From Gammaproteobacteria bacterium (GTDB lineage: Bacteria; Pseudomonadota; Gammaproteobacteria; Pseudomonadales; JADFDG01): a stretch of 64,000 nt of DNA. The stretch lies in the NCBI GenBank assembly GCA_046566505.1, contig JBKHWN010000159.1, positions 4,618-68,617 of the forward strand, given 5' to 3'. This document shows, piece after piece, positions 1-23,587 of the stretch (position 1 is its first letter; each line of letters begins with the position of its first letter). The notes beneath the pieces are model-generated. The model worked only from the letters and a program-made list of their open reading frames with translations. It had not been told where the DNA came from and made no database searches. Position numbers and translations under genes: made by a program.

Positions 1-315
1 GGCATTGCTGCCATCCGAGGTGCCCGCACCAGAAACGCCCCGGACATAGGAGACCAGGTCCCTGTCACTTTCGTGTCCCCCAGTGGATGCGAGGTTGTAC
101 TTTGGGTGCTCAGTCAGCAGCGTCATCAGTGCGTCGACAAGGGTGGTCTTCCCTGCGCCGGTCGGACCGATGATGGCAGTCCCGCGTTGATCGATGTCGA
201 CGCCATGGCGTCCTTCGAAGCCACCCCAGTTGTACAGATCCAGGCGTGTCAGCTTGTAGGTCTTGATGTCCGGCGGAGTCTCGTAGGCGAGATCAAGTGG
301 CGCGGTCGTGCTCAT
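1..315 (-). CDS. jetC: Wadjet JetC (SMC-like ATPase), first 105 codons only; gene runs off the left edge
   Basis: Not in the ORF track because it is truncated. Reverse-strand translation from the ATG at 315 gives MSTTAPLDLAYETPPDIKTYKLTRLDLYNWGGFEGRHGVDIDQRGTAIIGPTGAGKTTLVDALMTLL... Walker A is GPTGAGKTT. ATGA overlap with the jetB stop. Canonical jetA-jetB-jetC order. Confidence 0.8.
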   Translation of the reverse strand, partial: MSTTAPLDLAYETPPDIKTYKLTRLDLYNWGGFEGRHGVDIDQRGTAIIGPTGAGKTTLVDALMTLLTEHPKYNLASTGGHESDRDLVSYVRGVSGAGTSDGSNA

Positions 316-986
316 GCGTCAGTTTCCTCGCCAGCGTCGGCAGTACTTCGCTGGGCCACATCGCGGAAGGTCTGCAGCAGACTCTTGAGGCTGTCCGGGT
401 TCGCCAAGTGGGTGATGATCGGACGTACCTGCAACTTGTCGTTCTCTATGTCGGAAACGACTCCGTGCTCCTTGAGCGCCTCAAGCAAGTTTCTCAGGCG
501 TTTCTGTTCCATGGCGTCGCTACCGAGGGACCCAAGGTACAACTGGATCTGCGGCAACAGGTCATCAATGGCCAGCGAGGCATCAGACGCACCGATGCCG
601 GCCTGTTGTTCGTGGGCAACGTAGTGCTGGCGTAGGATGGCCAAAAGCAGAGACTGATCCAGCGTCAATCGACGTTTGCGAATCAGCGGGTGTGACCATT
701 CTTCGTCCGATGAGGTTGCGACATCAGGCCTAACCGCAAGAAACGCCAGCCCCCTGATCTCATCCAGCCTTGCCTCGAGATCCATAGGCTCCAGTGCCGC
801 GTTAACTTCAGCGAGCGATGTGGACGCAACCCGATAGAGATTGGGCTTCCGAGCGGACTCCAGCAGCCCGTGCTTCATCAGCTCCTTCAGGGTGTCCCGG
901 ATTTCTGTCCGAGTCGTTCGCCCGGCATCGGAATCGACAGGTGCCTGCGAGGGAAGATGGTCTTCTGTATCCATCAGTTCAGACAT
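312..986 (-). CDS. jetB: Wadjet JetB (DUF4194-like kleisin-partner subunit)
   Basis: 224-aa acidic protein. It sits between a DUF3375-like gene and a Walker-A SMC-like gene, with 3-nt and 4-nt junctions. Size and position match JetB/MksE. Confidence 0.75.
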   Translation of the reverse strand: MSELMDTEDHLPSQAPVDSDAGRTTRTEIRDTLKELMKHGLLESARKPNLYRVASTSLAEVNAALEPMDLEARLDEIRGLAFLAVRPDVATSSDEEWSHPLIRKRRLTLDQSLLLAILRQHYVAHEQQAGIGASDASLAIDDLLPQIQLYLGSLGSDAMEQKRLRNLLEALKEHGVVSDIENDKLQVRPIITHLANPDSLKSLLQTFRDVAQRSTADAGEETDA

Positions 987-989
987 TAC

Positions 990-2486
990 CTAGATATCCT
1001 CATCGAGTGCATCGATGGCAGCGGCGGACAGGTGAACCAGTGGCACCCTGAAACGCCAGCGAGAGCTGTCATCTGCCAGTACGTCGAGTAATTCCTGGTC
1101 CGTGCCGACAGGCAGACCTGCGGCCCTTGCCATGCCAAGCCAAGCTGCAATCGTTTCCAGGTCGTGGGTCGGGGGGAGTAGCTGGGCAATCTCGCCAAGA
1201 GACAGGGGCTTGCCGGCGGCCATCAGGGCATTCAGTGTCGATTGACGGAGTGCCTGACGGTCGAGGCCATTCAGTGCTTCCCAAAACTCAGCATCAACCG
1301 AAGCCAGGTCGGGCTGACGCATGTTCAGGTCGAGCTCTCTGTCTTCGCTGTCCTCTTTCGAATAGGCGCGTAGTCGTTCAATGACTGGCAGGTTATCTAC
1401 GCGAATCGCCAGGGCGGGGAGAGGGGATGGCAGTTGGCGTGTGCTCTGGGAGCTCCAGTCAATATCCAGGGCAGCTTGCAGCACATCGGTGAGCATGGAG
1501 CCAACGCGGTGGTGTTCTGCCGCCAGCCCGGTTTTCAGGAAACCCTTAACGTCCCGCTCGCTTCTTGCGCGCGTTCGGATAACGCTCTCTGACTCTTTGA
1601 CCAGCCGCATGACAAGCCACCGCAGGTCGGCTTGTTGTGTACTGGTAAGCGCGCGGGAGGATGCCGGGAATTTCAGGATATCCCGAATTCTCACTTTCAT
1701 TTCATCAAGCGCAGCGGGTTGGTGAAGTTGTTGGTGAAATCCGTAGAAGACTCGGCCCTCCTGCGTTTGAAGAAGGTCGTCCTGGCTCTTCAAAAGGCTG
1801 TCCAGAATTTCTCCACGGTCTTGCTGCTCGCTAATGATCCGCTGCCGAAGAATACGGTCTGCTTCTCGCCACGAGTCCTCGACACGACGGAAGTCGGCGC
1901 GCAGCCCCATGGCCAATGCGTATGCTTCCCGGACTCGCTCAATGACCTCGCTTTCAGAAGGGACCGCCATGTGGCCGGCCTCGATGTCTGCCAGCTCGCG
2001 CTCAAGCGCTGCAATCTGTCGCTTGATCCGGGATGTGCGTGCGGCAGCACTCGGGTTGATGCTCGATTCGAGCCTTTCAATGAAGTCCTGCACCACCATC
2101 AGGCGGGATGCCGACGATGTCATGATCCGGGCGTCAAGGGACTGCACAAACCGGAATGCGGACTCGAGTGCATCGGTCGGATAGAGGCGATCGTTGCGCT
2201 CTACCAGTAACTGCTTCTTGATCCACGCCCGGATTTCCTGCCGGGCAGCCCGCGGATAGTCGGCCTCGTCAACGGCATACTCAGGGTCGCTGGCGTGTTG
2301 CTCCAGCAGGCCTGCCAGGGCCTGTGCCGCATCGTCAACGGCGACGCCGTCCTGGACATCCTCAAACAGAGTCTGCAGGCAGCTGATGACGAGCGGTGCT
2401 CTCCGGGAGGCTAGCAACTGCCAGGCGGGGTGTTGCTGCCTGGCGACGATGTAGGCTTGAGTCCGTTGGCGTGGCGATATGTCCAT
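990..2486 (-). CDS. jetA: Wadjet JetA (DUF3375-like)
   Basis: 498 aa. The N-terminus (HPAWQLLASRRAPLVISCLQTLFED) and long coiled-coil middle are typical of DUF3375/MksB-like proteins. First gene of the jetABC order. Confidence 0.8.
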   Translation of the reverse strand: MDISPRQRTQAYIVARQQHPAWQLLASRRAPLVISCLQTLFEDVQDGVAVDDAAQALAGLLEQHASDPEYAVDEADYPRAARQEIRAWIKKQLLVERNDRLYPTDALESAFRFVQSLDARIMTSSASRLMVVQDFIERLESSINPSAAARTSRIKRQIAALERELADIEAGHMAVPSESEVIERVREAYALAMGLRADFRRVEDSWREADRILRQRIISEQQDRGEILDSLLKSQDDLLQTQEGRVFYGFHQQLHQPAALDEMKVRIRDILKFPASSRALTSTQQADLRWLVMRLVKESESVIRTRARSERDVKGFLKTGLAAEHHRVGSMLTDVLQAALDIDWSSQSTRQLPSPLPALAIRVDNLPVIERLRAYSKEDSEDRELDLNMRQPDLASVDAEFWEALNGLDRQALRQSTLNALMAAGKPLSLGEIAQLLPPTHDLETIAAWLGMARAAGLPVGTDQELLDVLADDSSRWRFRVPLVHLSAAAIDALDEDI

Positions 2487-2722
2487 TTGCTACATCAGCC
2501 TAGTTTTGTGGCCTGGGGGGCGCTCCCTCCGAGAGGCCCTTGTGTGGCGCGCTGTTGGCGCACCACACATCGCTTGCCCAATGGTCGGTTCGACGAGTTC
2601 AGGTTGTCTACTATCGTCGCCCGACAGTAGGGCGGGGGTGCGACAAGGGCTGTCGCTTCTCGGGTGCACGCTGGCCAGCAATCGGGCGCCTTGGATAGTG
2701 CCCACCCCTCACAGGAACAGAT

Positions 2723-3487
2723 ATGCCAACCGGACACAGCCCTGACCCTTGGTGCCGCTACATCCCCCACCTGCACCGCGCCTTGGCTGACCCCTCCCAG
2801 GCCGGCTACCTGCCCTACGTCGCCGAGGAACTGACCCTCGAGCAAGCCTGTAGCGCCTGGGAGCCGCTCCACTACCTGTTCACCGCACTGCTGGGGTGGC
2901 GTTCCCCCGGCCATGGATTGGCTTGGTGGTATGCCGCCGGGAAGCCGGTGGATGATCCGCGGCTGGCGCTGGTGCGGGAACTGTGGGACGCCCATTACCA
3001 GCTCGACTACTACGCGGCATGGGCCTGGGCTCAGGGGCAGGTGTGCCTGACTCCGGACGACCTTGATCCGGCTGCTATGGCCTGCGCGTCCCTGTGGCAA
3101 AACGAGGCCTGGTGGCGGGCATTCAAGCGGCGCGGCCTGGACCTGCAGAACGATCCCTTCTACGGCGGCAGCAACCCGTTGCACCTCGGGCACAGCGAGA
3201 CGTTTGGGCGTCAGGAAACGCCGGGCGCCCAATTGGACCTGGTGGTGGACAAGGCGAGCCGAAAGGCGGTTCTCATGGTGTGCGGGCTGCTGTCCTGGCG
3301 GGCAGATCTGGACGCAGCTTCCACAAGGTTGCCCAGCCTTGGGGATAGGTCTTGGCACGTCGAGGTTATCGACCGTCAGGTGGGCTGGCTGGGTGAGTAC
3401 CGGCTGAGCCGCGACACGGGACTGTGGTTCCTCGGCAAGCACAGCTTGCACATGAGGGGAAACAGTTCAAACGCATCCAATCAGTAA
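2723..3487 (+). CDS. Hypothetical Trp-rich protein, no recognisable family
   Basis: 254-aa ORF with a strong GC3 codon bias in this frame (read manually). About 20 Trp residues. The overlapping 318-aa minus-strand ORF looks like a GC-frame shadow. Convergent 7-nt 3' overlap with the M48 gene. Confidence 0.6.
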   Translation: MPTGHSPDPWCRYIPHLHRALADPSQAGYLPYVAEELTLEQACSAWEPLHYLFTALLGWRSPGHGLAWWYAAGKPVDDPRLALVRELWDAHYQLDYYAAWAWAQGQVCLTPDDLDPAAMACASLWQNEAWWRAFKRRGLDLQNDPFYGGSNPLHLGHSETFGRQETPGAQLDLVVDKASRKAVLMVCGLLSWRADLDAASTRLPSLGDRSWHVEVIDRQVGWLGEYRLSRDTGLWFLGKHSLHMRGNSSNASNQ

Positions 3488-4197
3488 AGTCTCTGGTCTA
3501 GATGTCGATTGAGTTTTTCGCGAAGCGCTTTCCAGTCCGGCAGAACTCGGTCCATTAGGCGGTTGAAGCCGATGCCGTGGTTCATCTCCCGCAGATGGCA
3601 CAGCTCATGCGTAATGACGTAGTCGATACAGTCCTTGGGGGCATATATCAACTCTGGATTCAGGCTAATGATCCTGCCCTTTGAACAACTTCCCCAGCGT
3701 GTTCGCATCCGGCGGATGCTGAGGGTTTTCGCTGCGGGAAGTTTGAGCCGGCCGAGTCGCTCTACACATGCCAGATAGCGCTCGCGAATAACCTCGCGGG
3801 CACGTCCATCCAACCAGGTGTTGACCAGTCGCCCGGTCTCCGCCGGCGTCAGTTTGTGCGGCCCGCTAACTTCGATGTATCCAGGCACGACCTTGATGCG
3901 GCTATCCGGTGAGGTCACGAGCCGAAGTCGGTACTGGCGGCCCAGGTAGCGGATAGTTGCCCCAGGCAAAAACTGCTTAACGGGCTGCGGCGGAGGCAGC
4001 GTCGCCATGGCGCGTTGTTGGCGCAGGATCCACGCCCCGCGCTTTCCCACGACGGCGGCGATGCGCTCAAGCGATGCGTCGACGGGTGCATCGACAACAA
4101 CTTTGCAATCCGGGTGAACATGAATGGCAAGCGTCTTTCGCTGCTTGCGCCTGACCCGGTAGGTGATGGTCGATGTACCGAACTGAATCGATGGCAT
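3481..4197 (-). CDS. M48/DUF45 (YgjP-like) zinc metallopeptidase, last gene of the type I R-M operon
   Basis: HEXXH motif in ITHELCHLREMNH near the C-terminus. 238 aa. Starts 1 nt after the hsdR stop. This family commonly follows hsdR. Confidence 0.8.
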   Translation of the reverse strand: MPSIQFGTSTITYRVRRKQRKTLAIHVHPDCKVVVDAPVDASLERIAAVVGKRGAWILRQQRAMATLPPPQPVKQFLPGATIRYLGRQYRLRLVTSPDSRIKVVPGYIEVSGPHKLTPAETGRLVNTWLDGRAREVIRERYLACVERLGRLKLPAAKTLSIRRMRTRWGSCSKGRIISLNPELIYAPKDCIDYVITHELCHLREMNHGIGFNRLMDRVLPDWKALREKLNRHLDQRLY

Positions 4198-4198
4198 G

Positions 4199-7100
4199 TC
4201 AGGCGTTGTCTCTGCGCTTGGCTACACGCAGAAGCTGGTCACCCAGCTCGTCGCGAATGGCATACGGCACGTCGAGGCCATACGTTTCCTTCAGGTCGTC
4301 GAAATAGTCGTCGAAGGCGTTGAGGATGGCCTTGCGAACCTCGTCATTGCCCTGCCAGTCACGGATCTTGTGCCCGTCGATGATGACCTGAACCTGAATC
4401 GCGATTTCTGCGGCCAAGTCGCTGGGTTCAATTCCGTGAATGTCGTAACTGGCCAACGGCTCCCGGATGACGCCGTAGTAAGCCTTGGCGTCGCTGTAGG
4501 GTTTCAGGGAAGCCGGCAGGTCGCTGCTGCTCTTGCCGCGCAATTCGTCCAACTGCTTGCGAACACGGGCAAGGTACTCCGCATCTGAAAGCCGGCGCGC
4601 GCGATGCTCGGCAATGGTCTCGTCGATCATCTCGGACAGCCGCTTGTAGAGCGCCGGGTCCTCATCCATGTTCTCGGTAATGGTCTTCTTGACCCGGTTG
4701 GCGATGGCGTCGGCCTTGGCGGCATCCCCCTCGATGGCCAGCAGTTCCTGTTCGAAGGCATCGATGGCGTAGATGTCGACCGGCGCAACGATCTGCCGCA
4801 CCGTGTCGGCGCCGATGTACTTGTTCACGAGGTTGCGGATCTGGGCCTCATAGGCCGAGTAATCCACAGACTCGCCATAGCGCTGCTTGACCGCCGCGCG
4901 CAGGTTGAGGAATTCGCGCAGGTCATCCCGATAGCGCCGCTTGATGTCCTCCTTTGTTTCGTCCTGCCAGCGGGCATTGCCGATAGCGAGTTGCAGGGTG
5001 CGTGCGAAAGCCGAAAGCACCTCGTAGAACCGCTGCCGGATATCCGCCGGTTCCAGGTGGCGCTGCATGGCTTCTATGTCGCGCTTTTGGGCGACAGGCT
5101 TGAACACATCACAGACGTGGGTGTGCCTCTCGGGTAGTTTGGCCAGCTCTGCCGAAACGTCTGTCAGCGTGTCCTCGACATCGGCCCGGTCGAAGCCCTG
5201 ATTCTCGAGTTCGGCGTAGGTGTCGATGGCATCGTTCAGCTCGCCGAAAATTCCCCGGTAATCGATGATCAGGCCGAAGTCCTTGCCATCGAATAGCCGA
5301 TTCACGCGGGCAATGGCCTGCAGGATGTTGTGATCCTTCAGGCGCTTGTCGATGTACAGCACGGCATTTCGTGGCGCATCAAAGCCGGTAAGAAGCTTGT
5401 CGACGACGATCAGTATTTCGGGCTCATCAGAGTAGTTGAATCCGCTGGTGACGTTCTTGACGTAGTCCTTCTCGTTGCCGTGACGGTCCATCATGTCCTT
5501 CCAGAACTTTTGGACCGCCGGTATGCTGGACTCGTCGGTATTCGTGTGCCCCTCGCGCGTATCTGGCGCGGAAATCACCACCGCAACCGATACGCCGCCG
5601 AACTCCTCGAAATACGCCTTGTAGCGCAACGCCATTTCCTTGCTGGTGCAGGCGAGTTGTCCTTTAAGACCCGTGCCCTTGTACTTGGCGGTGTAGTGCT
5701 GGATGACGTCGTAGGCGATCTCGGCGATTCGCTGGTCTGCCTTGGTCAGTTCCTCTTCTCTGCGGAACTTCTTCTTGAGGTCCGCCTTCTGCTCTTTGGT
5801 AAGGTCCTTGGTGATGCGTTCGAACCAGCGGTCGATCTGTTCACGGTCGCCGTGCAGCTCGGAGTATCTGCCCTCGTAAAGCAGAGGTGTCACGGCACCG
5901 TCCTTGATGGCCTGGCTCATGGTGTAGGAGTGGATGAAGCCGCCAAACTTGCGGGCAGTCTCCTTTTCGATCTTGAGCAGTGGCGTGCCGGTGAACCCGA
6001 TGTAGCAGGCGTTCGGAAAAACGTTGCGCATTCGGGCGCTCATCTCGCCGTACTGGGAGCGGTGGCTCTCGTCGATCAGAACAAAGATGTCCGGACTCGG
6101 GTCCTTGACGCCGCGCTTTCCACCAACCGTGCCGAACTTGTTGATGATGGTCGTGATGATCGGCGCCTTGCCGTTGACGATCAGATCGACAAGATCCTCG
6201 CCGGTCCTGGCCTGGGCGACCTGCTTCCCGCAGTTCTTGAACGTCTTGTAGATCTGGTCGTCTAGGTCAACGCGATCCGTGACCAGAATGACGCGCGGGT
6301 TGCGAATGGCGGGGGAGAGCGTCAGGGCTTTGGCCAACATCACCATGGTCAGCGACTTGCCGGAGCCGGTGGTGTGCCAGATGACGCCGCCCTGGCGGGC
6401 TTCGTCGCCCCGTGACTGTGTGACGCGATCCAGTGTCGACTGGATGGCGAAATACTGCTGGTAACGACAGACCTTCTTCACTTTCGCGTCGTAGACGATG
6501 TATCGGTAGACCAATTCCAGGAGGCGTTCCTTGCGCAGGAGGCTATGGATCAGCCGATCCTGTTCGGAGGGCAGGCGTGGCGCGATCAGTGTGGCCAGCT
6601 CCGCATCCTGTGCAGCAGGGCGCTCTTCCTTCCAAAAGGACCAGAACTTCTCCGGCGTATCCGTGGTCGCAAACAGCGCGCGGTTCTGCGACAGCGCCAG
6701 CAGCAACTGGCTGAAGGCATACAGTTCTGGAATCTCATCGTGACGCTGGTTTCGGAGGTGCTGGCTGACAGCCTCTTTGACGGCATCCTTCAGATCGGGT
6801 CGCTTGCACTCGATGACAACCAATGGGATTCCGTTAACGAACAGCACCAGGTCCGGGCGCCGGGTCAGTTTGCTGTGGTGGCGTTCCACTTCGAATTCGG
6901 AACAGACATGAAAGACGTTGTTTTCCGGATGTTCCCAGTCGATGTAGTGCAGCGAATAGCTGCGAGTGTAACCATCGATGGTTTGCTCCAGGCTCTTGCC
7001 CAGGGTGATCAGGTCGTAGATGTCTTCGCTGGTCTTGATCAGGCTGTCGAACGGCAGCTGTGTTAAGGCTTGCACGGCCTTCTGGATATTGCCGTCGGAG

Positions 7101-7306
7101 AAGGCGTGTTCCTGGCCGCGGAAATTGATGCGGTTGATGCGGCGAAGCTGGGTGGCCAGCACATCTTCCAGAATCATGCGGGAGGTCTTGCCCCCGCGAA
7201 GGGTCAGCGCGTCGTCCGGCGACAGGCGCTGGTAGCCGAGGGCGACCAGCAGGCCGAGCGCCGGGACTTGTGAAGCTTGATTTTCGCGGTAGTCGGAGGC
7301 AGTCAT
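4199..7306 (-). CDS. hsdR: Type I restriction enzyme R subunit
   Basis: 1035 aa. Walker A is HTTGSGKSLTM and the DEAH-type box is VLIDESHRSQYG. SF2 helicase motifs; typical size and C-terminal helical domain. Confidence 0.95.
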   Translation of the reverse strand: MTASDYRENQASQVPALGLLVALGYQRLSPDDALTLRGGKTSRMILEDVLATQLRRINRINFRGQEHAFSDGNIQKAVQALTQLPFDSLIKTSEDIYDLITLGKSLEQTIDGYTRSYSLHYIDWEHPENNVFHVCSEFEVERHHSKLTRRPDLVLFVNGIPLVVIECKRPDLKDAVKEAVSQHLRNQRHDEIPELYAFSQLLLALSQNRALFATTDTPEKFWSFWKEERPAAQDAELATLIAPRLPSEQDRLIHSLLRKERLLELVYRYIVYDAKVKKVCRYQQYFAIQSTLDRVTQSRGDEARQGGVIWHTTGSGKSLTMVMLAKALTLSPAIRNPRVILVTDRVDLDDQIYKTFKNCGKQVAQARTGEDLVDLIVNGKAPIITTIINKFGTVGGKRGVKDPSPDIFVLIDESHRSQYGEMSARMRNVFPNACYIGFTGTPLLKIEKETARKFGGFIHSYTMSQAIKDGAVTPLLYEGRYSELHGDREQIDRWFERITKDLTKEQKADLKKKFRREEELTKADQRIAEIAYDVIQHYTAKYKGTGLKGQLACTSKEMALRYKAYFEEFGGVSVAVVISAPDTREGHTNTDESSIPAVQKFWKDMMDRHGNEKDYVKNVTSGFNYSDEPEILIVVDKLLTGFDAPRNAVLYIDKRLKDHNILQAIARVNRLFDGKDFGLIIDYRGIFGELNDAIDTYAELENQGFDRADVEDTLTDVSAELAKLPERHTHVCDVFKPVAQKRDIEAMQRHLEPADIRQRFYEVLSAFARTLQLAIGNARWQDETKEDIKRRYRDDLREFLNLRAAVKQRYGESVDYSAYEAQIRNLVNKYIGADTVRQIVAPVDIYAIDAFEQELLAIEGDAAKADAIANRVKKTITENMDEDPALYKRLSEMIDETIAEHRARRLSDAEYLARVRKQLDELRGKSSSDLPASLKPYSDAKAYYGVIREPLASYDIHGIEPSDLAAEIAIQVQVIIDGHKIRDWQGNDEVRKAILNAFDDYFDDLKETYGLDVPYAIRDELGDQLLRVAKRRDNA

Positions 7307-7412
7307 GGCTCAAGCCACTCTGAAAACGAGGAGGTCGGCCTACGACAAAGGTCGTCGGATGTTTGCAAAGGGCTACAGGAAGGAAGGTCGCAATAGGAGG
7401 GGGCACGTCCAT

Positions 7413-8222
7413 TCATGGCGCCACCGTTTCCTTGGCGGGCAGCAACCTGGCCATGTTCATGGCAGCAACGAGGTCATGCTGCGAGTTCAGGTGACGGCGG
7501 ACTGTCTGCAATGCCTGTTTCAAGCTGGCTATCTTGTCCTTGCTCTTCTGGCTGGCATCCCAGGACACATTCAGCGTGTCCATAAACGAAAAGAAGTACG
7601 CTTCCAGCGTTTCTGGAACCCAGAGAAAGTTGTGGGCAACAATTTTCTGCTCAAGCCCGTAGGATTCAAAAACGTATCCGGAGCGCGCATTCCAATACTT
7701 TGCCAGCCGGACTAAAGGACGAATCAGCCCATTGCAGCGCCGGTCCTTGGCGTCGAGATCCTTGCTGAATGCGTCTGGGGTAGTTTCCATCCACTTGAAG
7801 ATGGCGCCTTTCGCTGGGATCTGCAGGCCTGTCCAGATCGTGGCGTCCTTTGCAGGGACCAGCTCGAAGCGAATGTGGTTAAGATCCAGCGCGATGGTGG
7901 GGTGATCTTGATAGCGGGTCGAATTGCTGTATCGCCTTTCGGCGAATCGTTTGAGACGGTCCAGGTAGGTCTGGGGCTCCTTGTTTGAATCAGCGAACAC
8001 AACCATGTAATCGACATCGGACTGTTCGTCCATCCAGCGGGGCAGCATCGTCTGCCTTGCATACGAGCCAAAAATAAGTCGTTTCGACACGATTGCGTTG
8101 TCAAACTCTTCAAAAAGACGCTTGTCGAGAGTAGCTATCGACGTTTCGATGCCGGCCTTTTCTTGCTGCGACATCAGGGCGCCATTGGCGACTCTCTGCA
8201 GGTATGCGTTCACCGCTGACAT
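7413..8222 (-). CDS. SMODS/CD-NTase-like (pol-beta fold) nucleotidyltransferase
   Basis: FGSYARQTMLPRWMDEQSDVDYMVVF gives a GS...DxD active-site pattern, with a downstream acidic strand IRFELVPA. 269 aa. GGAG Shine-Dalgarno inside the end of the upstream 2TM gene; 1-nt gap. Confidence 0.7.
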   Translation of the reverse strand: MSAVNAYLQRVANGALMSQQEKAGIETSIATLDKRLFEEFDNAIVSKRLIFGSYARQTMLPRWMDEQSDVDYMVVFADSNKEPQTYLDRLKRFAERRYSNSTRYQDHPTIALDLNHIRFELVPAKDATIWTGLQIPAKGAIFKWMETTPDAFSKDLDAKDRRCNGLIRPLVRLAKYWNARSGYVFESYGLEQKIVAHNFLWVPETLEAYFFSFMDTLNVSWDASQKSKDKIASLKQALQTVRRHLNSQHDLVAAMNMARLLPAKETVAP

Positions 8223-8223
8223 C

Positions 8224-8730
8224 TCAAGGCTCCTTGTCTACCCGATGGGTTGCGCGATCTTCATCATCAATGTGCTTCCGGGCCTGCTCGTAAGCGAAGC
8301 CGGGGATACCGGAACTTGATGTGTTCAGCTCGGTACGGCGCCGATTCAATTCGGACAGCTGTGCCGTTGCGTCCTGCGCAGCCGAGGTCTGAGGAAGATC
8401 CACCGTCCGGAATATTCTGGCGTCGTTGCGCAGTGCGCCAAAACAGTCTCCAGCCGCCTTGTGTTCCTGGGCTTTCTCGGACGGGTTGAAGAATGTCAGC
8501 GCCGCGGCCGACAAACTGGAAAGAACGCCGGCGATGGCGGTCAGCCAAGTGCAATCCGAAAACGCGGACCCGCCAGCGATGGCACCGAAGAGCGCTGCGA
8601 TACCACCAATCACGTAATGGGTCGTCTTCCAGCGGGATTCAGCGTTGTAGTGTCCTTTTGACGAGAAGGTCGAATCCTCCTCGATGCGAGATGCCTCGTC
8701 GCCGATGGCTTTTCGGATTGTTTCGTCCAT
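8224..8730 (-). CDS. SLATT-like 2-TM effector protein
   Basis: 168 aa. Two adjacent hydrophobic helices (HYVIGGIAALFGAIAGGSAF and WLTAIAGVLSSLSAAALTFF) are followed by a charged helical tail. Sits immediately upstream of the NTase. Architecture matches SMODS-associated 2TM (SLATT) proteins. Confidence 0.6.
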   Translation of the reverse strand: MDETIRKAIGDEASRIEEDSTFSSKGHYNAESRWKTTHYVIGGIAALFGAIAGGSAFSDCTWLTAIAGVLSSLSAAALTFFNPSEKAQEHKAAGDCFGALRNDARIFRTVDLPQTSAAQDATAQLSELNRRRTELNTSSSGIPGFAYEQARKHIDDEDRATHRVDKEP

Positions 8731-8738
8731 ACGAGCCC

Positions 8739-9908
8739 CTATGCCTTGAGTCGCTTCTTGCCGGTCAGAAGAACGGCCATCAGGGCCTTCTTCTGACTTT
8801 CGAGCGCAGTTTTCTTTGCGATGAGCAAACGCAACTCCGTATCGGCCGCACCCAGAACCCTTGCAATCGCCGCCTGTTCCTTGGGGTCCGGCACAAGGAT
8901 GGATGCGTCCAAAAATTCGTCCACCTGAATTCTTCGGGCTTTTCGGCCGCCCTCCGCAGCGCCGGAGAATTGCGCGTAGAAGCTGGTTTGCCCAACGAAG
9001 CTCAGGAAGAATTCCGGGTTAATTCCGGGAGAGAAATCAAAGGCGGGAAGATCGAGCGTTGATTCGTATCCGTCCAGGCTGGGAGGAACGATGCCGAAAG
9101 CGCCATTTAGAAAATCAAGTTTTCCGTAAATAAATTGCCCGGCCTTACGACGGTAATACTTGGTGTTGTCGCTGCCGACCATGCGCTCTGAGCGCGGAAC
9201 CACGCCGTTCCCGTAGAGCTTAACAGTAAGCTTTCTTGCAGAGCTTCCGTCCGATCCGGGATTTCGGCTTTCAGTCAGGAAGGATCGGATTTGGGTCTGT
9301 GCCCACGGAGTCTTGAATCCTGGCAGGCGCATTTTACCAGTGAGCAGTTTCTGCATCAGCGCTTGCTTGCGTTGTTGTTTGGCGGCGATCAGGGATTCGG
9401 TGGTCGAAATTGCAACCTCCCATGAAACTACGGCCTTTGAGATGCGTGCTTGCTCCGCAGGCGTAGGAACGCCAACCTCTTGATCGAGGATGTCGTCACG
9501 GCGGACGTGCAGGAGGCTACTCTTAAACCCGTGGGCGTTTTCCTCGATCCTTTGAGTTACATCCATCAGCGCAAGGTAAAGCCATGATTTCTCGACCCCC
9601 GGCTTGGGGTGAACCTTGAATATGTGCTGGTTCAATACGCCGCGCGGGCCATTCCAGATTTTTGGCCCGAATGAAACCCCCTTTACTCCTGCCCAAGCGA
9701 ATAGGATTTGGCCTGGTTCAACCAGCCACCTTTTCTCTGGGTGGCCTTGGAAGTAGTTGAATTCCTTCGACCCGTTCAAATTCTGAATACGAATAATCGG
9801 AAGCCCGGACGATTTCCAGTCAGACGGTTTGAACCCGTTGCCACTTTCGAGGGTGCAAAGGTCGCGTACTAAGGCGACGCTCCATCCACTAGGAATCATT
9901 GCGACCAC
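8739..9908 (-). CDS. hsdS: Type I restriction enzyme S subunit (full length, two target-recognition domains)
   Basis: 389 aa. Has two conserved helical spacer regions (...AAKQQRKQALMQKLLTGKMRLPGF and ...ESQKKALMAVLLTGKKRLKA) that separate two variable domains. Confidence 0.9.
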   Translation of the reverse strand: MVAMIPSGWSVALVRDLCTLESGNGFKPSDWKSSGLPIIRIQNLNGSKEFNYFQGHPEKRWLVEPGQILFAWAGVKGVSFGPKIWNGPRGVLNQHIFKVHPKPGVEKSWLYLALMDVTQRIEENAHGFKSSLLHVRRDDILDQEVGVPTPAEQARISKAVVSWEVAISTTESLIAAKQQRKQALMQKLLTGKMRLPGFKTPWAQTQIRSFLTESRNPGSDGSSARKLTVKLYGNGVVPRSERMVGSDNTKYYRRKAGQFIYGKLDFLNGAFGIVPPSLDGYESTLDLPAFDFSPGINPEFFLSFVGQTSFYAQFSGAAEGGRKARRIQVDEFLDASILVPDPKEQAAIARVLGAADTELRLLIAKKTALESQKKALMAVLLTGKKRLKA

Positions 9909-10953
9909 CTTTTTTCGTCTTGCCTGCCTTCTCTAGCTTCTTGCTCTTGGTAATGGCCTCGACGAAATGCTTTTCCACCGGGCTTATTTCTGCCAACTGT
10001 GCCTGGCGGAATTTCTCGAACTCGATATGCGCTTTCTTCAGCGCCGTATCGTTGCTGATCCTGCCGGCATGGGTCAGGATGTCGCGCTCAGAAAGCCGCA
10101 GGAAGTCGTCGAGCTTTGAGACCCAGTCGGACATGCGCATCGCCCTTCGGCTTAGCGCCTGTAGTTCGGCGAACTCCAGGTAGAACGTGACGATCCGGTT
10201 CAGGGTGTCGAGCTCTTCGGTATTCAAGTAGTTCTTCGCCACCTCCGTATCGGCCTTGCGCGGCTTGTCGCCCTGCCAGCTCGTCAGGCCCATGTTGGGC
10301 TGCGTGGCGTCGGCGCGGCGCGCAATGACTTCGGCGGCAGTGTGACCGTGGGCAGCCCAGTGCATCTTGTTTTGCACCGTTGCGAAGAATAGCTGCGAGG
10401 TGTCCGTTTTCGGGTCGTAGTCGATGCTGGTGGCGTAGATCTCCAGCACCTTTTTCCAGAAGACTTTCTCCGAGCTGCGGATGTCGCGAATCCGCGCCAG
10501 CAACTCGTCGAAGTAATGGGTCTGCCCGGCCGCCTTGAGGCGGTCGTCGTCCATGGCGAAGCCCTTGATCAGGTATTCGCGCAGGCGCTGGGTCGCCCAG
10601 ATACGGAACTGGGTGCCGCGCCGGGACTTCACGCGGTAGCCGACCGAGATAATGACGTCCAGGTTGTAGAACTCGATGACCCGCTCGACCTGGCGCCCCC
10701 CCTCCGGCTGAACCGTTGCAAAATCTGCAACAGTTGCCTCCCGGAGCAGTTCCCCCTCCTCGAACACATTGCGAATGTGGCGGGAAATCACGGACTTATC
10801 GCGGCCGAACAGGTCCGCCATCTGCTGCAGGCTCAGCCAGACGGTCTCGCCGGCCATGCGCACCTCGATGCGCGACTGGCCGTCCTCGGTCTGGTAGAGC
10901 AGGAACTCGGAGCCGGACGGTGCGCCGGGCACGCCGATGGGGTTCTCAGACAT
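9889..10953 (-). CDS. rhuM: RhuM-family protein inserted between hsdM and hsdS
   Basis: FLLYQTEDGQSRIEVRMAGETVWLSLQQMADLFGRDKSVISRHIRNVF... is the typical RhuM N-terminus. I place the start at the ATG at 10953 (MSENPIG), an 8-nt overlap with the hsdM stop, rather than the track start at 11022. Confidence 0.8.
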   Translation of the reverse strand: MSENPIGVPGAPSGSEFLLYQTEDGQSRIEVRMAGETVWLSLQQMADLFGRDKSVISRHIRNVFEEGELLREATVADFATVQPEGGRQVERVIEFYNLDVIISVGYRVKSRRGTQFRIWATQRLREYLIKGFAMDDDRLKAAGQTHYFDELLARIRDIRSSEKVFWKKVLEIYATSIDYDPKTDTSQLFFATVQNKMHWAAHGHTAAEVIARRADATQPNMGLTSWQGDKPRKADTEVAKNYLNTEELDTLNRIVTFYLEFAELQALSRRAMRMSDWVSKLDDFLRLSERDILTHAGRISNDTALKKAHIEFEKFRQAQLAEISPVEKHFVEAITKSKKLEKAGKTKKGGRNDS

Positions 10954-12466
10954 AGCCGAGCTCCTTGAGGTAGCCGGCCATTTCCTTCTGTACGTCCTTG
11001 AGTTGCGCCTCCAGGGTGGCAATCTCCTTCTGTACCTTGGCCATGTCGATCTCGACTTCTTCCTCGAAGGTATCGACGTAACGCGGAATATTCAGGTTGT
11101 AGTCGTTCTCCTTGATCTCGGCGAGCGTGGCCTTGTGTGCATACTTCTCGACGTTCTTGCGCGCTTGTACGGTCTTGACGATTTTGGCGATGTCGTCCGG
11201 CCGCAGACGGTTCTGGTTCTTGCCGTCCTGGAAATCCCGGCTGGCGTCCACGAATATGACGCTCTTGTCTTTCTTGTTGCGGCGGAAGACGAGGATGGCT
11301 GCCGGGATGCCGGTGCCGTAGAAGAGGTTGGTTGGCAGGCCGATGACGGCGTCCAGCAGGTTCTCGTCGATCAACTGCTGGCGAATGCGGCCTTCGGCGC
11401 CGCCCCGGAACAAGACGCCGTGCGGTACCACGACACCAACGCGTCCGCTGGTGGCGGTTGTTGTTTCGATCATGTGGCTTATGAAGGCGTAGTCCGCCTT
11501 GGACTTCGGCGGTAGGCCACGATGAAAGCGCTGGAAGCTGTCTGTCTGGGCTTCTTCAATGCCCCACTTGTCCAACGAGAAGGGCGGGTTGGCGACGACC
11601 ACCTCGAACTTCATCAGACGGTGTTCTTCGGTCAGCTTCGGGCTGCGCAACGTGTCTCCCCATTCGATGCGGGCGCTGTCCACCCCGTGCAGGAAGAGGT
11701 TCATCTTCGCGAGCGCCCAGGTTTCGCTGTTGTTTTCCTGGCCGAATAGCGAGTAGTCCTTGATGCCCTTCCGGGTCAGTTGGTTTGCGCAGCGCAGCAG
11801 CAGCGAGCCCGAGCCGCAGGTCGGGTCGCAGATGCGTTCGCCAGGTTGCGGGTTAACCAATTCGGCCAACAGTTCGGAGACTTCTGCCGGGGTGTAGAAT
11901 TCCCCGGCCTTCTTACCGGCACCTGCGGCAAAGCGAGCGATCAGGTATTCGTAGGCGTTGCCGATCACGTCCAGATTGCCAATGCGGGACGGGCGCAGAT
12001 TCAGCCGGGCATCGTTGAAGTCCTCAAGCAGCATCTTCAGGCGTGCATTGCGGTCCTTGGTCTGGCCGAGGTTGGCTTCCGAGTTGAAGTCGATGTTGCG
12101 GAAAACGCCAGCCAACTTCTTCTTGTTGGCATCCTCTATGGCTTCCAGGGCGATGTTGATCAGCTCGCCAATGTTGGGCTTGTTGCGCTGCTCGTAGAGG
12201 TCGCGAAAGCTGGCCCCTTTGGGAAGCACGAAGCGGTCGCGCTCGAGGCGCCGGCGGATCGCGGCATCGTCACCCTTGTGCTTGGCGCTGAGTTCTTCGT
12301 AGTGCTCATCCCAGACGTCGCTGATGTATTTCACGAAGAGCGTAACGAGGATGTACGCCTTGTACTGCGAGGCGTCTATCACGCCCCGAAAGGTGTCGCA
12401 TGCCTTCCAGACGATGTTGTTGATTTCGTCCTGGTTGATCGGCGGGGTCTTTGCGCTCTTGCTCAT
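10946..12466 (-). CDS. hsdM: Type I restriction enzyme M subunit (N6-adenine methyltransferase)
   Basis: 506 aa. Catalytic motif VVANPPFS; AdoMet motif DPTCGSGSLL; HsdM N-terminal domain. Confidence 0.95.
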   Translation of the reverse strand: MSKSAKTPPINQDEINNIVWKACDTFRGVIDASQYKAYILVTLFVKYISDVWDEHYEELSAKHKGDDAAIRRRLERDRFVLPKGASFRDLYEQRNKPNIGELINIALEAIEDANKKKLAGVFRNIDFNSEANLGQTKDRNARLKMLLEDFNDARLNLRPSRIGNLDVIGNAYEYLIARFAAGAGKKAGEFYTPAEVSELLAELVNPQPGERICDPTCGSGSLLLRCANQLTRKGIKDYSLFGQENNSETWALAKMNLFLHGVDSARIEWGDTLRSPKLTEEHRLMKFEVVVANPPFSLDKWGIEEAQTDSFQRFHRGLPPKSKADYAFISHMIETTTATSGRVGVVVPHGVLFRGGAEGRIRQQLIDENLLDAVIGLPTNLFYGTGIPAAILVFRRNKKDKSVIFVDASRDFQDGKNQNRLRPDDIAKIVKTVQARKNVEKYAHKATLAEIKENDYNLNIPRYVDTFEEEVEIDMAKVQKEIATLEAQLKDVQKEMAGYLKELGYV

Positions 12467-13080
12467 GGTTGCTTTCCTTCGGCGAGTCGGGCGAGCGCGG
12501 CATTCAGCCAGCGCCCCTTGAGGGTGGTGAGTTGTTCGGTCAGTTCCTTTTCCCGTCGCCAGGCAGCCGCCACCGTGGCGATACGCTGCTGGATCTCCAT
12601 GGGGGGGAGTGGAACTGCAAGTTGCGACAGCGAGTGTCGCGGGACGTATTGGACGACGGCTCCGGTAGCAGAGCCCTTCAGATAGGCTTGGGCCGTTTCT
12701 TCATTGATGACCCAGGCGAGGTATTCGGGGGCCAGGAGGGATCGGTCCTTGATGCGTAGGATCGCAAGGTGCGGGCTGGCGACCGTTTGCCGGGGGGCGT
12801 CCCCCAGCGCTACGGCAAAGAAGCGGCTTCCCTTGCCAGAGAACAGCACATCTCCGGCCTGAAGCCAGGCCTCGTCTCTCACGTCCGCCAGGTCGGTAGG
12901 TGTCAGGGTGGCGATATTCAGCCCTCGCTCCGGGTCCAGGTCGCGCATCTGAATGATGCGCACGGCGCCCCCGGGGCGGTAGACAACCCGCTCCCGCAAT
13001 GGGATGCCGTTATGGATGGAGGCCAAAGCCTCCAGGGGTCTGGTCGGCAATTTTTGAGGCTCCTTCGCCTTTGATGACAA
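12463..13080 (-). CDS. Half-size type I S subunit (single target-recognition domain plus one conserved helix)
   Basis: 205 aa. One TRD-like region, then PPMEIQQRIATVAAAWRREKELTEQLTTLKGRWLNAAL, the conserved coiled-coil of HsdS. 4-nt overlap with the hsdM start. Confidence 0.7.
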   Translation of the reverse strand: MSSKAKEPQKLPTRPLEALASIHNGIPLRERVVYRPGGAVRIIQMRDLDPERGLNIATLTPTDLADVRDEAWLQAGDVLFSGKGSRFFAVALGDAPRQTVASPHLAILRIKDRSLLAPEYLAWVINEETAQAYLKGSATGAVVQYVPRHSLSQLAVPLPPMEIQQRIATVAAAWRREKELTEQLTTLKGRWLNAALARLAEGKQP

Positions 13081-13150
13081 CGCAGCCTAAGGGGTGCTAG
13101 AGTCTGGTGCAAGATATTTTGCATCAATGGCGATGATGGCGGGGGCGGGG

Positions 13151-13756
13151 ATGAAGAAGGATTTGTTTCTCAAGGAGCTGGCCCAGTCGGGCTACAACAT
13201 CGGGTATGCCGCCAAGAAGCACCTAGCGACCTTCGACATCGTCGAAAAAGCGCCGGGCTGGATCACCCTGGCGACCTTGGCCATCGGCATCTTTGCACTG
13301 GTCCTGCCGTCCCTTGAGCATCACCTGATTGCCGCATTGGTCATCGTGGTCGGCGTTGCCTCGATGTACTTCGGTTTTTATCAGGATTCCCGTGGCGGTT
13401 ACGAAAGGACGGGCAGTCGGCTGACGACGCTGTTCACCGAACTCCGCATGCTCTACGCCGAGGCGCAAAGCCTTGATGACAATGCGGACCTTGAAGGATT
13501 GAAGACCCGGTATAGGGCAATCCTCGAGGAATCGCAGCGTATCGGCATCAGCAAGCAGATTTTTCTCAGCGACTGGTACGCGCACTACAAATTCTTCTGG
13601 CAGGCGCAAACAGGCTGGCTGGACGAGCAACTGCATTTCGAATTCTGGCGAGACAAAGTCCCACTGTCGGCAACCGTTGTTGCCTGCGTGATGGTTATTG
13701 TTGGCCTCTTTGCAGCAGTTTCTGCCCTGGTCATTCACTTCGGTGCATGCCCATGA
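13151..13756 (+). CDS. SLATT-like (family-5-like) membrane effector protein
   Basis: The track ORF starts at a GTG at 13094. I prefer the ATG at 13151 (MKKDLFLKELAQSGYNIGYAAKKHLATFDIVEKAPGW), which follows a G-rich Shine-Dalgarno. Two central TM helices plus one C-terminal TM. Its stop overlaps the start of the downstream NTase (ATGA). Confidence 0.6.
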   Translation: MKKDLFLKELAQSGYNIGYAAKKHLATFDIVEKAPGWITLATLAIGIFALVLPSLEHHLIAALVIVVGVASMYFGFYQDSRGGYERTGSRLTTLFTELRMLYAEAQSLDDNADLEGLKTRYRAILEESQRIGISKQIFLSDWYAHYKFFWQAQTGWLDEQLHFEFWRDKVPLSATVVACVMVIVGLFAAVSALVIHFGACP

Positions 13757-15039
13757 GCGATTCCGAGCTGTTCGAGCAGTTCCGAAAGAATCTCTCGGTG
13801 AGCAATCGCGGAGACATCTCCACCAAATACTGCAACATCACCACCCGGCTAAACGCGGACTTCTGGGATCTGGAGTCCGACACTCGGCACAGCCTTCAGA
13901 TCGGTTCTTACGGCCGCGCCACCGCCATTGACGGCGTCAGCGATCTCGACATGGTGTTCGAGTTGCCCCCGGCAAACCTGGCGCGCTACAAGAGTCTGCA
14001 GGGGAACGGGCCGTCCGCGATGCTGCAGGAGGTGAAGGCTTCCCTTGAGAAGCGCTATCCAAAAACCGATGTTTCGGCGGACGGGCAAATTGTCGGTGTC
14101 AACTTCACAGGCTATCGAGTCGAGGTTCTGCCGGCGTTCCTTGATGAGAACGGGGACTATATTCACGGCGATACCAATGACGGAGGGTCGTGGAAGACGA
14201 CAAAGCCGCGACCAGAGATTCAGGCAATCAACGACCTGAACAAGAAGACGAATGGGAACCTCAAGGATTTGTGCATGATGCTGCGCGCCTGGAAGAACCG
14301 GGCAGGAGTAGGCATTGGCGGGCTGCTCATCGATACATTGACCTACAATTTCTGCAGTCAGCATGCTGGTATCGAGAATTTGACGTACCGCGACTACCCG
14401 ACTCTTATGGTTTCGCTGTTCACCCATCTGGGTGGCTTGCCGGATCAGGATTACTGGCTGGCTCCGGGAAGCAATCAGCGGGTACGGTGCAAGGCAAAGT
14501 TTCAAGCTAAGGCAAGGAAGGCGGCTGCCCGTTGTCAGGAGGCTGTCGACGCGACATCGGAAAATGCGCGGTCACGTCTTTGGAAAAAGGTTTTTGGACG
14601 CCCATTCCCGCAGCCGGAGGTTCAGCGGTTGGTGGAGTCGGCTTCAATCCCGAAAACGGAAGCGTTTATTGAAGATAAGTTCCCTGTCGATATTCGATAT
14701 AGCCTGGAGCTGGATTGTGAGGTGACTGAAAAGGGAAATCTCCGCGAGATGCTCCGTGGGCTTATCAGCAGTAAGCGAAGGGTCCCAACTGGCAGAGGAC
14801 TTCGCTTCTATGTCTCGGCGTGCGATGTACCCGGCGAATACGCGATATTTTGGAAGGTACGCAATAGAGGAGAAGAGGCCGAACGGAGTGGCAGGCTTCG
14901 GGGTGAAATTTCGTTCGACGAGGGCGGTCGTAAGGAGAAGCGAGAGACCGCAGACTTCCCGGGCGATCATTACGTCGAAGCATATGCAGTCAAAAATGGT
15001 GTCTGCGTTGCGCGGTGCAGAATTGCAGTGCCGATTTAA
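13747..15039 (+). CDS. SMODS-type nucleotidyltransferase with a C-terminal AGS-C-like sensor domain
   Basis: LQIGSYGRATAIDGVSDLDMVFELP gives GS-x11-DxD, and YRVEVLPAF gives the third acidic residue. A ~140-aa C-terminal extension follows (...LRFYVSACDVPGEYAIFWKVRNRGEEAE...). 430 aa. An alternative ATG at 13753 forms an ATGA overlap. Confidence 0.7.
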   Translation: MPMSDSELFEQFRKNLSVSNRGDISTKYCNITTRLNADFWDLESDTRHSLQIGSYGRATAIDGVSDLDMVFELPPANLARYKSLQGNGPSAMLQEVKASLEKRYPKTDVSADGQIVGVNFTGYRVEVLPAFLDENGDYIHGDTNDGGSWKTTKPRPEIQAINDLNKKTNGNLKDLCMMLRAWKNRAGVGIGGLLIDTLTYNFCSQHAGIENLTYRDYPTLMVSLFTHLGGLPDQDYWLAPGSNQRVRCKAKFQAKARKAAARCQEAVDATSENARSRLWKKVFGRPFPQPEVQRLVESASIPKTEAFIEDKFPVDIRYSLELDCEVTEKGNLREMLRGLISSKRRVPTGRGLRFYVSACDVPGEYAIFWKVRNRGEEAERSGRLRGEISFDEGGRKEKRETADFPGDHYVEAYAVKNGVCVARCRIAVPI

Positions 15040-23415: not shown

Positions 23416-23501
23416 TAGGCGCTGGTTTCAGGCGTGACGCGACGGAAGACTGCGGACAGTAAAATGAATAACCTATTGATAATGCTAGGACGCTATTTCC
23501 G

Positions 23502-23587
23502 TGGCGGACGGTGGCGGAAAGATTGCAAGGGACTTAAAATCCCTCGACCGCAAGGTCATGCCGGTTCGATTCCGGCTCCGGGCACCA
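23502..23587 (+). tRNA. tRNA-Leu(UAA)-like sequence with a defective 5' third; probable displaced 3' tRNA fragment or att site
   Basis: Canonical features run from the anticodon arm onward. They are AGGGA-CTTAAAA-TCCCT (anticodon TAA at 23535-23537), a long variable arm, T-arm GCCGG-TTCGATT-CCGGC, and 3' acceptor TCCGGGC-A-CCA. The 5' strand TGGCGGA pairs at only 4 of 7 positions. Positions 8 and 14 are C, not U and A. A direct repeat GTGGCGGA x2 (23501-23518) lies at the junction. Confidence 0.55.

Follow-up and report, generated by a model that had tools for sequence, protein, structure and literature searches.

Defence genes nested within type I restriction-modification (R-M) operons have been described several times. 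The PrrC anticodon nuclease resides in the EcoprrI type IC R-M locus, where EcoprrI physically keeps it silent until the T4 Stp peptide releases it (PMC12707154), and a systematic 'guilt-by-embedding' survey, which covers 17,432 genes found inside BREX, DISARM and type I R-M systems, places the PrrC family mostly in type I R-M loci (10.1101/2024.01.29.577857). In enteropathogenic Escherichia coli (EPEC), DarTG2 lies between hsdS and hsdR of a type I R-M system, within an RptR-RMS-DarTG-M48 island (PMC12255303), and TgvAB in the type I R-M system of Vibrio VPI-2, as well as the Campylobacter rlo genes, are further cases (PMC11411939). Other work concerns type I CBASS (antiphage signalling that is based on cyclic oligonucleotides) in which a cGAS/DncV-like nucleotidyltransferase (CD-NTase) is paired with a SLATT membrane protein: a list of antiphage systems found on lactococcal plasmids and assayed includes a SLATT (PF18186) plus CD-NTase type I CBASS (PMC11381338), phage are restricted at least 10,000-fold by CdnF-SLATT6 operons (10.1101/2023.05.21.541620), and SLATT has been predicted to be a nucleotide-responsive pore former (PMC7159879). 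Here we consider two adjacent genes, encoding a 168-amino-acid (aa) two-transmembrane (2TM) protein and a 269-aa cyclase, that separate hsdS from hsdR in a type I R-M operon on a 64,000-nucleotide (nt) stretch of a gammaproteobacterial contig (JBKHWN010000159.1), the whole of which is referred to as the window. Systems of this kind are reportedly described as 'sometimes combined with' R-M in the abstract of the 2015 NAR article by Burroughs et al.

The pair is a new example of a known arrangement and not a new kind of system. It is likely that it represents an ordinary type I, that is two-gene, CBASS that occupies the hsdS-hsdR slot as exchangeable cargo and would most probably serve there as an autonomous abortive layer behind restriction, and it is probably neither a subunit nor a sensor of the restriction enzyme. 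The initial annotation, made from the sequence alone, had read the two genes as a signalling/abortive-infection cassette inserted into the restriction operon, and had stated that no characterised example of such nesting was known. The identity of the cassette and its insertion into the operon are borne out by the results below. The statement on novelty does not stand, since PrrC (PMC12707154), DarTG2 (PMC12255303), TgvAB (PMC11411939) and the embedding survey already establish that type I R-M operons can have defence genes nested in them.

The 269-aa protein matches Pfam SMODS (5e-34, 118 bits against a cut-off of 26.5) and, at full length, the PADLOC CBASS cyclase model PDLC00769 (1.1e-94, 3-262 of 261 profile positions). 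As the PADLOC CBASS models were derived from the published CBASS catalogue (PMC8565338), the cyclase family is already catalogued as CBASS. The motifs FGSYARQ, SDVDYMVVF and IRFELVPA, noted in the initial annotation, are all present, and in an alignment of 34 homologues (41-84% identical to the window cyclase) G52, S53, D69 and D71 never vary and E or D occupies position 120 throughout; a nucleotidyltransferase lacking its catalytic residues had been named as an observation that would speak against the cassette. The AlphaFold2 model built on this alignment (predicted local distance difference test, pLDDT, 93.7; predicted template-modelling score, pTM, 0.89) has a CD-NTase fold as predicted: the top 50 matches of a Foldseek search against the PDB are all CD-NTases (CdnD, CdnC, CdnG, CdnB, CdnE and DncV), the best of them CdnD, CdnC, CdnG and CdnB with template-modelling scores of 0.72-0.78 and E-values down to 8e-12. 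Sequence identity to the solved CD-NTases is 13-18%, and a sequence search against PDB chains returned weak CD-NTase matches only (best E = 9e-5). A nucleotidyltransferase of the MNT/HEPN-type or AbiEii-type toxin-antitoxin systems was ruled out, the best fold and hidden Markov model (HMM) matches all being CD-NTases.

The 168-aa protein belongs to the SLATT_4 family: it matches the family model, and its two adjacent transmembrane helices are followed by a soluble part that is also helical. It aligns over its full length with the PADLOC 2TM effector model PDLC00712 (3.4e-53) and scores 114 bits against NCBIfam SLATT_4, for which the cut-off is 55. Hydropathy peaks at approximately residues 38-58 and 61-82 and a charged C-terminal half (13 K+R, 15 D+E) agree with the two hydrophobic helices and charged tail of the initial annotation, and the AlphaFold2 model is all-helical (pLDDT 86). 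A word-indexed search with the 2TM protein returned 12 homologues only, and its diversity was therefore drawn from the loci fetched for the comparisons below, which carry L numbers.

With HMM matches of 1e-94 and 3e-53 the identity of the pair is not a matter of chance, and the Pfam, PADLOC and NCBIfam searches, of the kind the initial annotation had proposed, together with the predicted fold, point to a SMODS/CD-NTase cyclase and a SLATT 2TM effector. In gene content the locus is a CBASS, comprising a CD-NTase with its active site and the CD-NTase fold, an adjacent effector and no accessory genes. Only the two genes lie between hsdS and hsdR, their neighbours are hsd genes, rhuM and ygjP, and no Cap2/Cap3 or HORMA/TRIP13 genes were found nearby, which makes this CBASS type I. 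It shares with the type I SLATT CBASS from lactococcal plasmids (PMC11381338) and with EcCdnF04-SLATT6 (10.1101/2023.05.21.541620) a two-gene operon with the effector upstream of the cyclase, the GS/DxD/acidic active site, the CD-NTase fold, a small two-helix SLATT protein and the lack of accessory genes. However, the window cyclase, at 269 aa, is a minimal enzyme without the AGS_C sensor domain that the tested lactococcal and CdnF enzymes have, and the pair is embedded in an R-M operon rather than standing alone.

On the minus strand, 3.4-13.1 kb of the window form a tightly packed string of genes in the order half-size hsdS-like, hsdM, rhuM, hsdS, 168-aa, 269-aa, hsdR and YgjP-like (Table 1). 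The pair is nested in this type I R-M operon with translational-coupling spacing: eight nucleotides separate the hsdS stop from the start of the 168-aa gene, and one nucleotide lies between the TGA of the latter and the ATG of the cyclase (..CCTTGAGATG..), whose Shine-Dalgarno sequence AAGGAG is located within the upstream gene. Both start codons are backed by homologue alignments. The open reading frames (ORFs) agree with the initial annotation on the hsdS stop at 8739, the two gaps and protein lengths, the 106 bp to hsdR and the position of the Shine-Dalgarno sequence. Its description of this stretch as visibly more AT-rich than hsdM and hsdR holds for GC at third codon positions, which is 65-67% in the pair and 79-81% in hsdM and hsdR. 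It holds less well for total GC, where the difference is modest (54% and 58% for the pair against 58.8% for hsdM and 59.0% for hsdR) and hsdS, which is also lower at third positions, is equally low at 54%. A promoter and terminator scan of 3300-13400 gave no signal above shuffled expectation between genes, and an internal promoter in the 106-nt spacer is neither supported nor excluded by it.

The same slot, a two-gene cargo of abortive type and a terminal metallopeptidase gene (M48 in EPEC) are found in the EPEC DarTG2 island. The cargo there is a DNA ADP-ribosylating toxin-antitoxin system, whereas in the window it is a nucleotide-signalling pair, and the EPEC island has an upstream RptR repressor where the window operon begins with a half-size hsdS-like gene. 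PrrC is likewise a suicide-type effector gene nested among hsd genes, but it is a single tRNA nuclease under the control of its R-M system, whereas pairs of the window type also occur without any R-M system. The rhuM gene of the window corresponds to PDC-S05, itself a candidate from the guilt-by-embedding survey. The SMODS/SLATT_4 clade is not singled out in the text consulted of the embedding papers (10.1101/2024.01.29.577857; PMC11411939).

The behaviour of the R-M operon as a carrier was followed in 80 metagenomic relatives of the R-M family (HsdR 42-59% identical), among which 58 loci hold both a full hsdS and hsdR. The hsdS-hsdR junction is empty (-28 to +24 bp) in 10 of these, including carriers of rhuM such as L096 and L119; it consists of 100-230 bp without an ORF in six, and it holds 0.45-4.9 kb of cargo in the other 42. 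Empty sites of this kind had been anticipated in the initial annotation. The cargo matches Schlafen/AlbA_2, TIR and ThsB-like proteins, DUF3800, Abi_alpha, SAVED nuclease, ApeA-HEPN, GIY-YIG, short Argonaute accompanied by SIR2 or TIR, and numerous PADLOC PDC families, and the SMODS/SLATT_4 pair is present in a single locus (L141). Schlafen-AlbA/HATPase proteins, DUF4917 (PDC-S21) and proteins without a family match were also seen in the gaps of L091-L170. A second slot is the hsdM-hsdS junction, which contains rhuM, SMODS-AGS_C-like or other SMODS-like genes (the last two in L114, L126, L141, L146, L152, L155 and L159). The window rhuM overlaps both of its neighbours, and in relatives the gene is present, truncated (88 aa in L003) or absent. 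Both junctions behave as a general hotspot for defence cargo, and the presence of empty junctions or other cargo in relatives of the same family argues that the pair is cargo and does not belong to the R-M enzyme itself.

Mosaic exchange of the pair is seen within the lineage of the window. The backbone of hsdM, hsdR, ygjP and the neighbouring CBASS is 88-94% DNA-identical between the window and its closest relatives, loci L003 and L004; the pair is 83% identical in L003 and approximately 70% in L004. The target-recognition domains of the window hsdS are unrelated to those of L003 and L004, with only the central conserved stretch aligning. In L003, the cyclase of which is 95% identical to that of the window, the cyclase TGA overlaps the hsdR ATG (ATGA), and relative to this junction 110 bp, bordered by a CCATGA repeat, are inserted in the window and in L001/L002, which creates the spacer. 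The insertion contains a short hairpin (ACGACCTTTGTCGT) and no promoter- or terminator-like match. The possibility that the 106-nt spacer is a repeated element, either a repetitive extragenic palindrome (REP) or a miniature inverted-repeat transposable element (MITE), was rejected, as it is present once in the window and elsewhere only in the identical contigs L001 and L002. The L004 lineage carries a deletion of approximately 390 bp that removed both transmembrane helices (L004 6519-7479; also L005 and L006, from several samples). Only about the first 30 codons of the 2TM gene remain, the orphan cyclase is intact and 62% identical to that of the window, and the R-M operon is otherwise intact, with an HsdR 97% identical to that of L003.

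The cyclase family is compact but widely distributed, with 297 hits, spread over many phyla, among 185,579 species-representative genomes and 240 clusters at E <= 1e-30 in a library of 1.84 billion proteins; the best species representative is only 49% identical to the window cyclase. The positions of the cyclase and of its 2TM and hsd neighbours were mapped in 90 fetched loci, 80 of which are species loci. In approximately 78 of the 90 the cyclase has the 2TM gene immediately upstream, which answers the concern in the initial annotation that the two might never be found together elsewhere. Distances between cyclases correlate with those between 2TM proteins (Mantel r 0.74-0.91) and less with those between HsdR proteins (0.44-0.59), HsdR and HsdM themselves giving 0.95-0.998. 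This adjacency and these correlations indicate that the two genes of the pair travel together and that their tie to any one R-M system is loose. The pair is kept together in embedded, post-hsdR and stand-alone contexts. No type I R-M genes were seen in 29 of the 80 species loci, some of them on short contigs; 16 of the 29 have at least 4 kb on both sides, where the neighbours are mixed (BrxC, PLD, Abi_2, Vsr, HTH/M78), and a stand-alone copy lies on a Rhizobium plasmid. Two loci show other arrangements: in L025 (734-4648) hsdS is followed by a SMODS-AGS_C plus SLATT_6 pair and by a relative of the 269-aa cyclase without a 2TM gene directly upstream, so that two cyclases share the position downstream of hsdS, and the contig ends before any hsdR; a match on the lactococcal plasmid pMRC01 consists of a nucleotidyltransferase followed by a different 252-aa gene, with no SLATT upstream.

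Table 1. Features of the window discussed in the text, with strand and supporting matches or remarks
Feature	Position	Strand	Basis or remark
Half-size hsdS-like gene	12463-13080	-	PADLOC Specificity_I 2e-20; start codon uncertain
hsdM, methyltransferase subunit	10946-12466	-	NCBIfam TIGR00497 hsdM 1e-93
rhuM-family gene, cargo between hsdM and hsdS	9889-10953	-	Pfam Virulence_RhuM 2.5e-114; PADLOC PDC-S05 9e-150
hsdS, full-length specificity subunit	8739-9908 (stop 8739-8741)	-	Pfam Methylase_S; PADLOC Specificity_I 2e-62
168-aa two-transmembrane SLATT_4-type protein, predicted CBASS membrane effector	8224-8730	-	PADLOC PDLC00712; NCBIfam SLATT_4
269-aa minimal CD-NTase / SMODS cyclase	7413-8222	-	Pfam SMODS; PADLOC PDLC00769
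Spacer, 106 nt, cyclase stop to hsdR start	7307-7412	-	Sequence comparison with L003
hsdR, type I restriction subunit	4199-7306	-	NCBIfam TIGR00348 hsdR 4e-146
YgjP-like metallopeptidase, final gene of R-M operon	3481-4197	-	Pfam YgjP-like 6e-55
Second type I CBASS, divergent: SLATT_6 effector; SMODS-AGS_C cyclase	13094-13756; 13747-15039	+	
Tyrosine integrase gene	22000-23349		Adjoins tRNA-Leu
tRNA-Leu	23498-23583		Adjoins integrase gene; likely island boundary
Start of Wadjet plasmid-defence operon: DUF3375 (JetA-like) and DUF4194 (JetB-like)	312-2486	-	DUF3375 2e-103; DUF4194 2.5e-27; runs toward left window end

The left 23 kb of the window, in which the R-M operon lies, resemble an integrated defence island that also takes in the SLATT_6 CBASS and the Wadjet genes jetA and jetB. 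Its R-M/CBASS part has a GC content of approximately 54-60%, the window as a whole 63%. Between 15120 and 23583 the island also contains DUF932, YqaJ-like recombinase and Gp3-like recombination-directionality genes, and tRNA-Asn and tRNA-Pro lie just beyond the tRNA-Leu. The half-size hsdS-like gene corresponds to one target-recognition domain (205 aa in the window, called as 161 aa in L003), and its position upstream of hsdM is conserved across the R-M family in many phyla. At the other end of the operon, the YgjP-like gene follows hsdR in nearly all loci of the embedded type; the Pfam domains HSDR_N, ResIII, SWI2_SNF2, T1R_D3-like and T1RH-like_C were found on the HsdR of L001, which is identical to that of the window. 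A 254-aa ORF (2723-3487, plus strand) has no Pfam match and lies in a stretch of 63-68% GC with long ORFs on both strands; it is probably real, since a gene of the same size occupies the same position after ygjP in L004. A housekeeping protease encoded in the window shares 100% identity with a protein from a 'Gammaproteobacteria bacterium' metagenome-assembled genome at NCBI and about 52-56% with Pseudomonas and Thalassolituus proteins; the host is an uncultured gammaproteobacterium.

The second, divergent pair at 13094-15039 matches Pfam SLATT_6 (2.6e-65), SMODS (2.3e-44) and AGS_C (1.3e-40) and a PADLOC cyclase model (1e-165), and a SLATT_6 CBASS is also the neighbour of the R-M operon in L003 and L004. 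The initial annotation called this pair non-homologous to the one between hsdS and hsdR, which is wrong at the superfamily level because the two cyclases, both SMODS, are distant homologues (22% identity, E = 5e-8). No pairwise similarity was detected between the two 2TM proteins, both of which are of the SLATT family (SLATT_4 and SLATT_6). The second pair is a distant paralogue from the same superfamilies.

For the nested pair we propose the following mechanism. The two genes would be transcribed together with the R-M genes, and an infection that escapes restriction would lead the cyclase to make a cyclic oligonucleotide. This nucleotide would activate the SLATT membrane protein and thereby permeabilise the inner membrane, with death or arrest of the cell ensuing before phage release. 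We infer the product, trigger, pore formation, co-transcription and defence activity of the pair on the basis of established CBASS biology.

Several observations weigh against reading the pair as an ordinary CBASS carried as cargo. The 168-aa protein scores 19 bits against Pfam SLATT_4, under the gathering score of 27, and the cyclase scores 90 bits against NCBIfam CBASS_cyclase_b, for which the equivalog cut-off is 200; with both scores under curated thresholds, the pair is to be regarded as a divergent CBASS member. A fold search with the 2TM model against the PDB gave no significant match and hence no solved structural relative, and no recognisable nucleotide-binding domain was found in the 168-aa effector. 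For the SMODS/SLATT_4 clade as a whole, a nucleotide product, a trigger and pore formation would likewise be carried over by analogy. The L004 lineage has lost its effector and kept its cyclase. Finally, linkage to type I R-M is seen in approximately 50 of the 80 species loci, more than a purely random cargo model suggests: in 24 the pair is embedded between hsdS or hsdM and hsdR as in the window, approximately six more are probably embedded on contigs that end early, and in 20 it directly follows hsdR, often with 4-bp gene overlaps. This rate of linkage leaves room for functional coupling.

One such coupling would be a guard of restriction similar to PrrC, in which the pair would be silenced by intact HsdRMS, or would sense anti-restriction proteins such as Ocr, ArdA or Stp-like peptides, and would kill when restriction is disabled. 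PrrC is a precedent in that it lies inside an R-M locus and its abortive activity is switched on when that R-M system is inhibited (PMC12707154), and the association of the pair with R-M recurs with unrelated type I families. In a broader form of this idea, type I enzymes may have in the SMODS/SLATT_4 clade a dedicated partner that monitors the restriction complex or anti-restriction proteins and triggers membrane collapse once restriction is neutralised; if true, this would explain why the pair is found inside or directly after type I R-M, of at least three different families, in approximately 60% of the sampled species. However, there are copies of the pair with no type I R-M in the surrounding 5-10 kb, so the family is not confined to R-M loci. 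Its presence in only one of the 58 R-M relatives, in a slot shared with many unrelated defence genes, means that a shared cargo hotspot explains the linkage.

The loci in which the pair follows hsdR also speak against recognition of the enzyme. They share a backbone of WYL regulator, GmrSD, type I R-M, 2TM gene, cyclase and a 315-aa protein (examples are L029, L051, L056, L026 and L054, ~1300-12100). Between L029 and L051 the flanks are 83-89% DNA-identical, yet the R-M block has been exchanged in its entirety for one of an unrelated family, with HsdR ~21% identical and HsdM proteins that differ in length (524 aa and 835 aa). In these islands it is the R-M system that is the swapped part and the pair that is the constant part, and the finding of pairs at least 80% identical beside HsdR proteins that are only ~21% identical argues against specific recognition of the restriction enzyme. 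An annotated copy of this island type lies on an Aeromonas caviae conjugative plasmid (L172, NZ_CP121793.1), next to type I-F CRISPR (Cas6f, Csy3) and Tn7-like (TniQ, TniB) genes; its SLATT gene is split. Many of the R-M-linked loci are copies of a few island types, and independent associations are few. The R-M-linked count is thus inflated by shared ancestry, and the ~60% linkage overstates the number of independent events. We therefore regard a guard of restriction as unlikely, and give the clade no more than a slim chance of being a dedicated partner of type I enzymes.

Less probable again is that the signal is inverted, as in Panoptes, so that a constitutively produced nucleotide would keep the 2TM toxin inactive until phage sponges or nucleases remove it and release the toxin. 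Panoptes demonstrates that a cyclase and a 2TM effector can use such logic (PMC12657218; PMC12657230), and the different second CBASS 4 kb away could be the guarded system. The sole decayed variant of this kind, L004, lost the effector and kept the cyclase, exactly as a toxin-antitoxin-like dependency would allow, but a single decayed lineage is weak evidence and normal CBASS logic equally tolerates loss of the effector. Panoptes, moreover, consists of an mCpol (Cas10-like) synthase and a beta-barrel S-2TM-beta effector (PMC12657218), whereas the window pair combines SMODS with an all-helical SLATT protein, and the CD-NTase/SLATT operons tested so far behave as ordinary CBASS. That the pair is an inactive or non-defence passenger, either a decaying remnant or a module with a role such as regulating the R-M operon, is the least probable of all and very unlikely: the L004 deletion, the split SLATT gene of the Aeromonas plasmid and a presumed defence role of the clade that is drawn by analogy would allow it, but both window genes are intact full-length ORFs, the catalytic residues are invariant down to homologues 41% identical to the window cyclase, the family is widespread across phyla and its neighbours are consistently defence genes.

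The reading of the pair as a type I CBASS carried as exchangeable cargo, which we consider likely, provides one further, well-documented instance of type I R-M operons acting, as is known of them, as carriers of other defence genes. If it is true that the R-M linkage of the pair reflects sensing of restriction failure, a long-standing gap would be filled, as CBASS would gain a trigger that is defined; simple cargo exchange is the reading favoured by the present evidence. Both junctions of this R-M family constitute slots with very diverse contents, and they could be productive places in which to seek new defence genes.

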